Source: Escherichia coli (GTDB lineage Bacteria > Pseudomonadota > Gammaproteobacteria > Enterobacterales > Enterobacteriaceae). From it: DNA of 64,000 bases. Below are positions 1,174 through 24,568 of this stretch, piece after piece. The stretch lies in the NCBI RefSeq assembly GCF_003334305.1, contig NZ_QOWS01000004.1. One strand, 5' to 3'. The position numbers were made by a program, and so were the translations under genes. Position 1 is the first letter of the stretch. The number at the start of each line of letters is the position of its first letter. The notes beneath the pieces are model-generated. The model worked only from the letters and a program-made list of their open reading frames with translations, made no database searches and was not told where the DNA came from.

Positions 1174-3804
1174 TTATTGCAATTTCGCGCTGACCCAGCC
1201 TTTCACACTGGCTAACGCTGCAGGTAAGGCCGCAGCATCCGTACCACCGGCTTGCGCCATGTCAGGACGTCCACCACCCTTGCCGCCCACCTGCTGAGCG
1301 ACCATACCAATCAGTTCCCCTGCTTTCACACGATCTGTGACGTCCTTAGATACGCCTGCAATCAGAGAAACCTTACCTTCGGCTACCGTTGCCAGCACGA
1401 TAATTGTCGACCCCAGCTGATTTTTTAAATCGTCAACCATGGTACGCAACATTTTCGGCTCAACACCGCTAAGCTCGCTAACCAACAGCTTAACACCATT
1501 AACATCAATTGCCTTACTGGAAAGATTTGCGCTCTCCTGTGCGGCAGCTTGTTCTTTAAGCTGTTGTAGTTCTTTTTCTAACTGACGCGTACGTTCCAGT
1601 ACTGAGCGCACTTTATCCGCCAGATTATTGCTATCGCCTTTCAGCAGATGCGCGACTTCGCTTAAGCGATCGCTGTCTGCATGAACGGTGGTGATAGCGC
1701 CTTCTCCGGTTACCGCTTCGATACGACGAACGCCTGCAGCAGTACCCGATTCAGAGATGATGCGGAACAGACCAATATCACCAGTGCGGCTGGCGTGAGT
1801 ACCGCCACACAGCTCGGTGGAGAAATCGCCCATGCTCAGCACGCGTACACGCTCATCATACTTCTCGCCGAACAGCGCCATCGCACCTTTCGCTTTCGCC
1901 GCTTCGAGATCCATGATGTTGGTTTCGATCGGCAAATTGCGACGAATCTGTGCGTTCACCAGGTCTTCGACCGCACGAATCTCTTCCGGTTTCATCGCTT
2001 CGTTGTGTGAGAAGTCGAAGCGCAGCACCTTGTCGTTAACCAGTGAACCTTTCTGCGATACATGAGTCCCCAGAACCTGGCGCAGCGCAGCGTGCATCAG
2101 GTGCGTTGCGGAGTGATTCAGACGAATACGGGCGCGACGAGCCTCATCAACATCAGCCTGCACAGCGTCGCCCACTTTCAGAGAACCCGCAGCAAGTTTA
2201 CCGATGTGACCAATCGCCTGGCCGTATTTCTGCGTATCTTCCACCGCGAAGGAGAAGTTAGCGCCTTTCAGTTCGCCTTTATCACCAACCTGACCGCCGG
2301 ATTCCGCATAGAATGGTGTTTGATCCAGCACGACCACAGCTTCCTGGCCTGCATTGATGGCATCAACCGCTTTACCATCAACAAACAGCGCGGTCACTTT
2401 GCCGTTCAGTTCCAGATGGTCATAGCCTTTAAATTCAGATGCACTATCAACACGGATCATTGCGTTGTAATCGGCACCAAAGCCGCTGGCTTCGCGCGCG
2501 CGACGACGCTGCTCTTCCATTGCTGCTTCAAAACCAGCTTCGTCAACTTTGATGTTGCGCTCACGACAAACATCAGCCGTCAGGTCAACCGGGAAGCCAT
2601 AGGTGTCGTACAGACGGAAAGCCGTTTCACCATCCAGCGTATCACCAGAAAGTTTTGCCAGCTCTTCATCCAGCAACGCCAGACCGCGCTCCAGAGTACG
2701 GGCAAACTGCTCTTCTTCAGTCTTCAGCACCTGCTCAACCTGCGCCTGCTGGCGTTTCAGGTCTTCACCCGCAGAGCCCATAACGTCGATCAGCGGACCA
2801 ACCAGTTTGTAGAAGAAGGTTTCTTTCGCGCCGAGCATATTGCCGTGACGCACTGCGCGACGAATGATACGACGCAGTACATAACCACGGTTTTCATTGG
2901 ACGGCATTACGCCATCCGCGATCAGGAACGCACAAGAACGAATGTGGTCAGCGATTACGCGCAGCGATTTATTGCTCAGATCGGTCGCGCCAGTGACTTT
3001 CGCTACCGCCTGGATCAACGTGCGGAACAGGTCGATGTCATAGTTAGAGTTAACGTGTTGCAGCACCGCAGCAATACGCTCCAGACCCATACCGGTATCT
3101 ACAGACGGCTTCGGCAGCGGTTCCATCGTGCCATCTGCCTGGCGGTTGAACTGCATGAAGACGATGTTCCAGATCTCAATGTAGCGGTCGCCGTCTTCTT
3201 CCGGACTTCCCGGAGGGCCACCCCAAATGTGGTCGCCGTGATCGTAGAAGATTTCGGTGCACGGGCCGCACGGACCAGTGTCACCCATCTGCCAGAAGTT
3301 GTCAGATGCGTATGGCGCACCTTTGTTATCGCCGATGCGAATAATACGTTCGCGCGGGATCCCGACTTCTTTTTCCCAGATTTCGTAGGCTTCGTCGTCG
3401 CTTTCATAGACGGTAACCCACAGACGCTCTTTCGGCAGGGCAAACCATTTTTCGCTGGTCAGCAGTTCCCATGCAAACTGAATGGCATCGTGTTTGAAAT
3501 AGTCGCCGAAGCTGAAGTTGCCCAGCATTTCGAAGAAGGTATGGTGACGCGCGGTGTAACCGACGTTTTCCAGGTCGTTGTGTTTACCACCCGCACGCAC
3601 GCAGCGTTGGGAAGTGGTAGCGCGGGAATAATTACGCTTGTCGAGCCCAAGGAACACATCCTTGAACTGGTTCATCCCGGCGTTGGTAAACAACAAAGTT
3701 GGGTCGTTATGGGGTACCAGGGAGCTGCTGGCAACTACCTGATGTCCCTTACTATGGAAAAAGTCGAGAAACGCCTGACGGATCTCAGCGGTGCTCTTGC
3801 TCAT
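1174..3804 (-). CDS. alaS: Alanine--tRNA ligase
   Basis: ORF track 876 aa, starts [24 protein letters not shown]; class II aaRS; position downstream of recX. Confidence 0.97.
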
Positions 3805-3931
3805 AATTATCCTGAAATCAAGCTAACGAAATATCGCCACCAGCTCCAGCGTGTCTTAACCGCCGGGCTGGTAACTGAAAAGTGGGAATAAGATAAGTTT
3901 TCTTGACTGGGAAGTAAAATACCGTATGCGT

Positions 3932-4432
3932 TCAGTCGGCAAAATTTCGCCAAATATCCTGGATATCTTCCATCAGATAGCCACGATAGAGCAGAAAACG
4001 CTGGATCTTAACTTTTTCTGAAAAGACAGTTGGCAAAGGTTCACCATATTTTCGCGTCGCCTGATCGCGCGCCAGTGCGCACCAGTCGATGTCACATTCA
4101 CGCATCGCTTTTTCTGTCGCTTCGCGGGAAATACCTTTCTGATTCAGTTCCTGACGAATACGTGCAGGTCCATAACCTTTGCGGCTACGGCTGGCGATAA
4201 AGCGCGCAACAAATCGGCTGTCATCGAGATAGCCATGTTCATGGCACCAGGCAATAACGCGCTCGTAATCTTCTGCCGTAGCATCAATCTCTTCTGGGCC
4301 ATTTTTGCCCATAATCGGTGCCGCGAGTTTACGTCGCAGTTCTTGCTCACTGTGATCGCGCACCGCCAGAATGCGTACCGCACGATCCAACAGGCGAGCA
4401 TATGCCGGGCGACGGGACGTTGATTCTGTCAT
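3932..4432 (-). CDS. recX: RecA regulator RecX
   Basis: ORF track 166 aa, [36 protein letters not shown]; immediately downstream of recA on same strand. Confidence 0.95.
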
Positions 4433-4449
4433 GGCATATCCTTACAACT

Positions 4450-4480
4450 TAAAAAAGCAAAAGGGCCGCAGATGCGACCC
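4450..4480 (-). terminator. Rho-independent terminator hairpin between recA and recX
   Basis: Inverted repeat gggccgcagatgcgaccc (4463-4480) followed on the minus strand by a U-rich run (uuuugcuuuuuu). Confidence 0.6.
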
Positions 4481-4594
4481 AGGTTTTGCTGATAAACAGA
4501 TTTAATAGTCAATGAGTGTGCAGAATGTTCCCGCAGGCCCAATTCGTTAGAGGATCGAGGTGAGAGTAATTTTTCACGCCAGTGCTGGCCTGTT

Positions 4595-4631
4595 CCCCTC
4601 ACCCTAACCCTCTCCCCAAAGGGGCGAGGGG
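4595..4631. repeat. GC-rich imperfect palindromic intergenic element (cccctcaccctaaccctctcccc aaa ggggcgagggg)
   Basis: Visible inverted symmetry CCCCTC...GAGGGG around an AAA centre; lies in extra recA-recX intergenic DNA; resembles enterobacterial boxC-type repeats (identity is inference). Confidence 0.45.
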
Positions 4632-4674
4632 ACCGTCCGTGCACACATTATCTATTATCATCAATAACGAACGA

Positions 4675-5815
<1,141 letters not shown>

Positions 5816-6313
5816 TCAAGTGTTTTGTAGAAATTGTTGCCACAAGGTCTGCAATGCATACGCAGTAGCCTGACGACGCACCGCATCACGGTCGCCGCTG
5901 AAGCATTCCCGCCGGGTAATGCCTTCACCGCGGGCAGTGGCAAAAGCAAACCAGACGGTGCCGACAGGCTTCTCTTCACTGCCGCCATCCGGCCCGGCGA
6001 TACCACTAATAGACACGGCATAATCAGCACGAGCCGCTTTCAGTGCGCCTATCACCATTTCCACCACGACGGGTTCACTCACCGCGCCATGCTGCGCCAG
6101 CGTCTCTTCGCGTACGCCGATCATCTGCGCTTTGGCTTCGTTACTGTAGGTGACAAATCCGCGTTCAAACCAGGCGGAGCTACCGGCAATATCGGTAATC
6201 ACTTTCGCTACCCAACCACCGGTACAAGACTCGGCAGTTGTTACGGTTGCGCCACGGGCTTTCAGCGCCTGCCCAACCTGTTCACTTAACTGCATCAGTT
6301 CACTGTCAGTCAT
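5816..6313 (-). CDS. pncC: NMN amidohydrolase PncC (CinA C-terminal domain family)
   Basis: ORF track 5816..6316; protein MTDSELMQLSEQVGQALKARGATVTTAESCTGGW; position between recA and mltB. Confidence 0.9.
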   Translation of the reverse strand: MTDSELMQLSEQVGQALKARGATVTTAESCTGGWVAKVITDIAGSSAWFERGFVTYSNEAKAQMIGVREETLAQHGAVSEPVVVEMVIGALKAARADYAVSISGIAGPDGGSEEKPVGTVWFAFATARGEGITRRECFSGDRDAVRRQATAYALQTLWQQFLQNT

Positions 6314-10527: not shown

Positions 10528-10556
10528 TGCCTGATGCGCTACGCTCATCAGGCCTA
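10528..10556. repeat. REP (repetitive extragenic palindrome) unit
   Basis: gcctgatgcgctacgctcatcaggcctac, classic REP palindrome between srlD and gutM. Confidence 0.8.
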
Positions 10557-10588
10557 CAGGACTTCCGCCACTACATTAAGGAAAAGTT

Positions 10589-17013: not shown

Positions 17014-17220
<207 letters not shown>

Positions 17221-24488: not shown

Positions 24489-24568
24489 GCCGGATGCGGC
24501 GTGAACGCCTTATCCGGCCTACATAGTTCGTGCGACATGTAGGCCCGATAAGCGCAGCGCATCGGGCA
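24489..24568. repeat. Pair of inverted REP units (BIME) downstream of ascB
   Basis: gccggatgcggcgtgaacgccttatccggcctaca and tgtaggcccgataagcgcagcgcatcgggca. Confidence 0.85.

Follow-up and report, generated by a model that had tools for sequence, protein, structure and literature searches.

The window considered here (i.e., the whole 64,000-nucleotide stretch of DNA that was analyzed) is from E. coli, and its recA coding sequence lies on the minus strand (4675-5736), followed by recX. Between the recA stop (4675) and the recX start (4432) is a spacer of 242 bp (4433-4674), just as an earlier note on this DNA had placed it. The same note had put the corresponding gap at ~70 bp in K-12, which would make the spacer of the window ~170 bp longer, and the annotation of K-12 MG1655 agrees, with recX ending at 2822639 and recA beginning at 2822708: K-12 has a 68-bp spacer and not the 242-bp one, and the net gain in the window is 174 bp. 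The flanking genes are 99.5% (recA) and 99.0% (recX) identical at the nucleotide level to those of K-12. When the two spacers are aligned, both have TAATCGT after the recA stop; they become identical again at GGGTCGCATC (4480) and stay so over the terminator, the recX ribosome-binding region and the recX ATG. Between these blocks, 190 nt in the window (4481-4670) stand against 16 nt (CTTGTTTGATACACAA) in K-12, and the difference at recA-recX is thus a 190-for-16-bp replacement, not a clean insertion.

The retained terminator has a 7-pair stem (6 G-C), a 4-nt loop and then TTTTGCTTTT, i.e., the makeup of an intrinsic (Rho-independent) terminator, and is conserved across genera in an alignment of outgroups. 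In a promoter and terminator scan, the stem-loop 4480-4463 with its T-run was the sole terminator-like site of the spacer, which is where the earlier note had seen a hairpin close to recX; no second terminator and no sigma-70-like promoter were found in the spacer. Being placed between the recA stop and this retained intrinsic terminator, the extra DNA is, judging from the sequence, part of the recA 3' UTR, and on this point too the alignment and the terminator scan agree with what had been proposed.

Table 1. Features between recA and recX, in the recA-to-recX direction (window coordinates).
Feature	Position	Strand	Basis or remark
recA stop codon TAA	4675..4677	minus	recA CDS boundary
Left terminal inverted repeat (arm), TCGTTATTGATGATAA	4655..4670	minus	Inverted repeats I1, I5; family alignments A2, A5, A6
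Left sub-terminal segment, TAGATAATGTGTGCACGGACGGT	4632..4654	minus	Counterpart of GTACAAAAGTGCTCAGACAGT in sibling copies
Intact BoxC/PIT/TMECO unit, type A (TTA loop): CCCCTCGCCCC TTT GGGGAGAGGG TTA GGGTGAGGGG	4595..4631	minus	TMECO regular expression, 4596-4630
Central spacer between BoxC units, AACAGGCCAGCACTGGCGTGAAAAATT	4568..4594	minus	27 nt; apical small hairpin in predicted fold
Decayed inverted BoxC unit, type B position: ACTCTCACCTCGATCCTCTAACGAATTGGGCCTGCGGG	4530..4567	minus	Aligned to sibling consensus ACCCTCACCCCGACCCTCTCCCTGAAAGGGCGAGGGGG
Right sub-terminal segment and right terminal inverted repeat (...CATTGACTATTAAATCTGTTTATCAGCAAAACCT)	4481..4529	minus	Abuts terminator stem directly
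recA intrinsic terminator: stem-loop GGGTCGCATCTGCGGCCC (4480-4463) and T-tract TTTTGCTTTTTT (4462-4451)	4451..4480	minus	K-12-identical
recX ribosome-binding region and ATG (4432-4430)	4430..4450	minus	K-12-identical by alignment

The whole length difference consists of a single imperfect palindrome of ~190 bp (4481-4670, Table 1), whose left arm starts 4 nt past the recA stop codon. An inverted-repeat search recovered two pairs of arms, 4486-4495 with 4655-4664 (90% complementary) and 4503-4532 with 4628-4657 (70%), and the element as a whole is ordered as a left arm, a type A BoxC unit, a 27-nt center, an inverted unit in the type B position, and a right arm. Sibling copies from five loci were aligned with the spacer (yggL-yggN, yijF-gldA, gcvP-ygfF, sstT-alx and eutG-eutH), and the insert aligned end to end with the composites at the first four of these. 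The type A unit and its immediate surroundings are 100% identical to the sibling consensus, at every position. Its partner (4530-4567) differs from sibling type B units by about a dozen substitutions and yields no match to the TMECO regular expression. The same unequal decay (consensus A unit, decayed partner) is seen in Escherichia sp. E1V33, and this asymmetry could reflect gene conversion, or selection on the A unit, instead of neutrality.

The extra DNA is one copy of the BoxC repeat (also PIT or TMECO) within this larger palindromic element. The pattern taken from PMC4666352 (CCCTCNCCC-N3-6-GGGNGAGGG-N3-GGGNGAGGG) matched the window once (4596-4630, minus strand). Three of the 23 TMECO copies tabulated for MG1655 (copies 7, 11, and 15) have an identical 36-nt core, and a single occurrence of the 23-nt G-rich core was counted in the 64-kb window, where shuffles led to an expectation of 0. 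The imperfect palindrome at 4595-4631, for which the earlier note had given the correct 37-mer and suggested a boxC-type repeat, is thus genuine and correctly assigned, on the strength of both the pattern and the three identical K-12 copies; its extent has to be revised, since the 37-mer is only a core and the length difference is explained in full by the ~190-bp composite around it. Nor is the segment single-copy: megablast of the spacer gave 37172 places over the 5426 E. coli genomes, with a median of 7 in each, and blastn a median of 15 places per E. coli genome, and all BoxC copies that were fetched lie between annotated genes.

The authors who described TMECO (Holder et al., PMC4666352) identify it with the BoxC repeats known since the 1990s and with what Hoyne and Maher called "potential intrastrand triplex" (PIT) elements. 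Members of this family occupy >20 unrelated loci, point in either direction and stand at varying distances from genes, and the same authors noted five A+B inverted pairs in K-12. The recA-recX locus itself is listed there as TMECO no. 91 of E24377A (Table S8), a strain whose spacer is likewise 242 bp. As with the published BoxC/PIT/TMECO repeats (Bachellier et al., 1990s; Hoyne et al., 2000; Holder et al., 2015, PMC4666352), the window element is intergenic, multi-copy, endowed with the matching core, and variable between strains, the repeats being most abundant in strains such as IAI1, 55989, E24377A, and O26. Its layout would correspond to the described pair of a type A (TTA loop) and an inverted type B (CCG loop) unit, the A unit being intact and the decayed unit in the type B position aligning with the type B units of sibling copies. 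It differs from them in its partner unit, which has decayed off the motif, and in its scale, since the published descriptions that were consulted treat a unit of 34-37 nt whereas the window has an arm-bearing composite of ~190 bp. The feature is therefore a known family member at a catalogued and common polymorphic site, i.e., real but ordinary.

Short (190 bp), non-coding and bounded by terminal inverted repeats, the element is also a MITE in the generic sense. It resembles the enterobacterial MITEs ERIC/IRU in being small, non-coding and palindromic with terminal inverted repeats, in being expected to give a hairpin RNA when inside operons and in its insertion polymorphism between strains. 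However, it has no sequence similarity to ERIC/IRU, which rules out that identity for the insert, and the duplications at BoxC sibling loci are whole stem-loops of 16-25 bp, in contrast to the short target duplication of fixed length of ERIC/IRU-type MITEs. To our knowledge, BoxC has no cognate transposase, and the BoxC literature that was consulted mentions none.

Among 5426 complete E. coli genomes, the long allele was found in 1635 (~30%) and the short allele in 3770, and by blastn ~1550 genomes have a long-allele copy at least 99% identical to that of the window. Anecdotally, strains with the long allele include E24377A, O111:H8 and O145 strains, and those with the short allele K-12, BL21-type, O157:H7, and JJ1887. 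To polarize these alleles, recX loci were sampled from one genome per species, giving 79 outgroup loci. Spacers of 66-73 bp predominate among them (Enterobacter, Klebsiella, Raoultella, Citrobacter, Kosakonia, Trabulsiella, and others), and the parts of the K-12 spacer (stop, ~20 nt, terminator, ~20 nt, recX) recur colinearly in Klebsiella, Enterobacter, Citrobacter, and Trabulsiella. The short spacer (~68 bp), being both predominant across Enterobacteriaceae and colinear, is therefore ancestral. That the long spacer came first and was deleted in K-12 is highly improbable: the K-12 16-mer (CTTGTTTGATACACAA) loosely resembles the right arm GTTTGTCAGCAA, and several Escherichia species have the long allele, but the K-12 20-mer aligns with those of the short spacers that predominate, in the same layout, across genera, and E. 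albertii keeps a K-12-type 20-mer intact upstream of an insertion of its own. A deletion in K-12 was thus ruled out by the comparison with the 79 outgroup loci.

The long form is not confined to E. coli. Escherichia sp. E1V33 has a 242-bp spacer, decayed partner unit included, that is ~5% diverged from that of the window, a divergence similar to that of its flanks (identity to the window of 97.6% for recA and 95.6% for recX), and Escherichia sp. MOD1-EC7003 has a decayed copy of the composite at the same site. With the long form in at least two other Escherichia species, this is an old presence/absence polymorphism. Both alleles span species boundaries, which corresponds to a long-standing polymorphism, to recombination or to both, and their persistence across species could be due to balancing selection or recombination as well as to neutrality. 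A recent introgression of the long allele and its flanks from another Escherichia was considered and rejected, the recA and recX of the window being 99.5% and 99.0% identical to those of K-12 and only 94-98% identical to those of the other species. Separately, some long-allele genomes (O145 RM8988-C1, O145 RM9873-C1, and O128ac:H12 AW1.7) have few other BoxC matches, with 2-5 places as compared to 10-12 in most long-allele genomes, which may point to recombination having carried the recA-recX allele from one lineage to another.

The outer ends of the insert are inverted repeats of one another, and also form the ends of BIME-1-type REP-pair elements. BIME-1 (RIP or RIB) elements are composed of REP y, an L linker with an IHF site, and REP z1. 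The terminal arms, GAGACTGATGACAAA and TTTGTCAGCAATCTG, were retrieved both in an alignment of four BIME copies and three BoxC composites (A5) and as inverted repeats (I1, I5), and the left arm of the window element (TCGTTATTGATGATAA) has its homologue in the GAGACTGATGACAAA arm seen in sibling BoxC composites and in BIME-1 elements. They are common to the BIME-1 elements at artJ-rlmC, entD-fepA, K-12 yggL-yggN, and E. albertii recA-recX, and across the alignment of BIME and BoxC composites there is one common left end (GAGACnGATGACAAA) and one common right end (CACTTTGTCAGCAATCTG). The E. albertii case is a REP-L-REP inside the same arms (150/158 nt, 88-92% identity with other E. coli loci, arms included), with the same right junction as the window element, TCAGCAAAACCT followed by GGGTCGC. 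BoxC pairs and BIME-1 thus have in common their terminal arms, a preference for sites beside terminator hairpins, and some orthologous sites (recA-recX in E. albertii, yggL-yggN in K-12). The latter locus holds a REP pair (BIME) in K-12 and most genomes and a BoxC pair instead in 65 genomes, and identity between the two alleles (L003:1455-1700 vs. L092:240-470) resumes inside the arm ends GATGACAAA and TTTGTTATCAATCT. As BoxC and REP cores lie within the same arm ends at yggL-yggN, they look like alternative contents of one frame; to judge from its sequence, the core at this locus appears to have been either exchanged in place or brought in by a second insertion at an identical site.

The window element is itself not a BIME, nor is it readily seen as a substrate for the Y1 transposase that accompanies REP elements (PMC3333891), since a motif scan of 4433-4674 found no REP/PU hairpin, no GTAG tetranucleotide and no L linker. 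REP/BIME-like sequences are present elsewhere in the window (~10529-10557, ~17155-17214, and ~24489-24567). All of these are devoid of GATGACAAA-type arms, so that the arms do not go with REP clusters in general; they may match the external motifs of early BIME papers.

At sibling loci, direct repeats of a stem-loop, usually the neighboring terminator, stand immediately outside the arms. Such flank repeats were found at E. albertii recA-recX (GGGACGTATCTGCG / GGGTCGCATCTGCG), at artJ-rlmC (AAGCCGCAACCGCGGCTT / AAGCCGCACATGCGGCTT), at yijF-gldA (19 of 25 positions matching) and at three loci from metagenomes, with a perfect 16-mer at one of the three. Overall, at 6 of 10 arm-bearing loci the flank repeats (16-25 nt) outscored all, or 99%, of the 88 cross-locus controls. 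The repeats above controls (L004, L011, L094, L155, L158, and L201) resemble an unusually long, hairpin-shaped target duplication. The metagenomic loci derive from a scan with the 17-nt right-arm pattern, which returned mostly chance matches from unrelated organisms; nine of the returned loci were true family copies, representing six distinct sites, of which three were new and usable. At the window copy itself no target duplication was detected, the flank score of 14 being reached by 13.6% of cross-locus controls, and given this result and the 190-for-16 replacement, we infer the mode of arrival from the sibling loci.

Two of the other Escherichia spacers bear on this arrival. That of E. albertii (L011:2762-3000, 238 bp) consists of a K-12-type 20-mer, a decayed copy of the terminator stem, an armed BIME-1, and the functional terminator. 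That of MOD1-EC7003 (L009:1978-3000, 1022 bp) begins with the decayed BoxC composite and a terminator-like stem-loop, followed by a tandem array (L009:2097-2971) of 5.1 units with a period of 169 and 94% matches, each unit being an armed BIME-1 plus a copy of the terminator stem-loop, with the T-tract kept in the last copy only. By comparison with these loci, the window element would have arrived through the process that places arm-bearing BIME-1 and BoxC composites beside stem-loops, with direct duplication of the hairpin; it replaced 16 bp of the ancestral ~68-bp spacer. The simplest reading, we infer, starts from an ancestor resembling E. albertii, with the order spacer, hairpin copy, element, hairpin, from which the upstream 16-mer and the hairpin copy were later lost; loss of this upstream hairpin duplicate at recA-recX would have left the element inside the transcript.

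Taken as a whole, we consider it probable that a ~190-bp MITE-like BoxC composite arrived by this sibling-type process and resides in the recA 3' UTR as a selfish or near-neutral non-coding passenger, and a near-neutral passenger is the most likely reading, ahead of those that assign it a role as regulatory RNA or as DNA structure. The element would be transcribed with recA and would probably fold into an imperfect hairpin of ~160 nt ahead of the terminator hairpin, and any effect on recA mRNA decay or recX read-through would be expected to be modest; for an effect of this kind, which the earlier note had suggested, the predicted long hairpin was the only argument to emerge. The 251-nt 3' UTR is predicted to form a long imperfect hairpin plus the terminator hairpin (-98.4 kcal/mol, z = -6.1). 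Signs of a dedicated function were looked for and not found: an Rfam scan of 3800-5900 at permissive thresholds returned only chance-level matches (best E=1.3), and the insert yielded no promoter, extra terminator, credible ORF or compensatory base pair.

An adaptive cis-regulatory RNA, in which this hairpin would alter mRNA decay (through access of RNase III or 3'-exonucleases) or recX read-through and thereby retune the RecX:RecA ratio, is the best of the alternatives, and an unlikely one. The element sits inside the transcript directly upstream of the terminator, its predicted fold is stable (the z-score above), and in the minimum-energy fold GCAAAA of the right arm can pair with the UUUUGC tract of the terminator. 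REP elements in 3' UTRs can attenuate read-through and stabilize upstream mRNA in a context-dependent manner (bioRxiv 10.64898/2026.03.23.713779), and recX is co-transcribed with recA in E. coli, going by Pages et al. (2003) as it is listed in PMC3062782. Since REP elements act in comparable 3' UTR positions and recX is co-transcribed, a modest effect on recX:recA would by analogy be possible. The closest parallel is REP325 at yjdMN, an attenuator and stabilizer in a comparable position, i.e., also a repeated hairpin between co-oriented genes with the potential to limit read-through and protect the upstream mRNA (bioRxiv 10.64898/2026.03.23.713779), but of a different repeat family, whereas at recA a strong intrinsic terminator already follows the element. 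Long retention, in ~30% of E. coli and in other Escherichia species, would also fit a regulatory role, as would the three C-to-U substitutions of the decayed unit, which keep G-U pairs in the recA-sense RNA.

However, this regulatory role has to contend with several observations. The BoxC family is dispersed over unrelated loci irrespective of orientation and gene distance (see above), and earlier tests of PIT elements, to the extent that they are related in PMC4666352, showed them to have neither promoter nor terminator activity and not to affect RNA polymerase. Across the consensus of five composites, RNA covariation analysis found none of 41 pairs to be compensatory, and the window copy breaks 8-9 of these 41 consensus pairs. 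The element is moreover absent from 70% of E. coli and decayed in one sister species.

Still less likely, by a clear step, is an action at the DNA level, in which an intrastrand purine-motif triplex of the G-rich BoxC unit, or a cruciform of the palindrome, would stall replication or transcription and make the site a rearrangement hotspot. The BoxC unit fits the triplex motif exactly, and its G-rich strand is the recA sense strand, i.e., the non-template strand of a highly transcribed gene. A triplex was seen in vitro with an isolated oligonucleotide that has the sequence of the K-12 copies identical to the window core, and variation from strain to strain is greater at TMECO loci than at control loci, but in vivo DMS footprinting left the guanines unprotected and gave no evidence of a triplex (PMC4666352). 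The spacer is also strikingly variable across Escherichia, with BoxC, BIME-1 or a 5-fold tandem BIME-1 array depending on the species; mobility of the elements explains this variability equally well, at this position other genera have repeats of unrelated kinds (ERIC among them) and no BoxC, and the long allele is highly uniform, as indicated by the ~1550 near-identical copies. Finally, a small protein or an independent small RNA gene within the insert can be discounted almost entirely: two mechanical ORFs cross it (71 aa at 4429-4644, minus strand, and 51 aa at 4582-4737, plus strand), but neither has an NCBIfam match and both span repeat units and the terminator, and a gene finds no annotated RefSeq feature at the insert among the genomes listed, no promoter-like site and no Rfam family.

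The element matters little in itself: it is a common strain polymorphism from a catalogued repeat family, unmarked by standard annotation. For ~30% of E. coli, though, it means 174 extra, strongly structured nucleotides in the 3' UTR of recA, a gene studied more than most in bacteria, ahead of the terminator that limits recX, and because the long allele alters this 3' UTR in many strains (e.g., E24377A), results on recA/recX transcript ends and read-through obtained in K-12 may not transfer to them. The collateral observations (arms common with BIME-1, duplicated terminator hairpins, and apparent in-place swaps of BoxC and REP cores) provide a testable handle on how these long-known and mechanistically obscure repeats spread. 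It is tempting to speculate, as a conjecture that we regard as rather doubtful, that BoxC pairs and BIME-1 REP pairs are alternative cargos of a single MITE-like chassis with ~17-nt terminal inverted repeats (GAGAYTGMTGACAAAG), which would integrate at stem-loops (usually terminators) and duplicate the whole hairpin (16-25 bp), with a core exchangeable in place. If so, the 3' UTR variants found in nature at recA-recX would form an allelic series, from the short spacer over the BoxC pair and the BIME-1 to the 5-fold tandem array of [BIME-1 + terminator], and these alleles could set recX read-through and tune the control of RecA filaments between Escherichia lineages.

Beyond BoxC, the stretch from the recA stop to its terminator is a recurrent landing place, colonized repeatedly across Enterobacteriaceae: depending on the species, it contains a BoxC pair, a BIME-1, a tandem BIME-1 array, an ERIC or another palindrome. 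Inserts in other genera were seen at six loci (L023, L064, L069, L036, L041, and L044). A full ERIC/IRU element occupies recA-recX in Silvania confinis, and in two further spacers (L064 and L069) just the ends of an ERIC are present. Unrelated palindromes stand at recA-recX in Kluyvera, Raoultella, and Superficieibacter, and the spacers of Salmonella and several Citrobacter measure ~105-116 bp.
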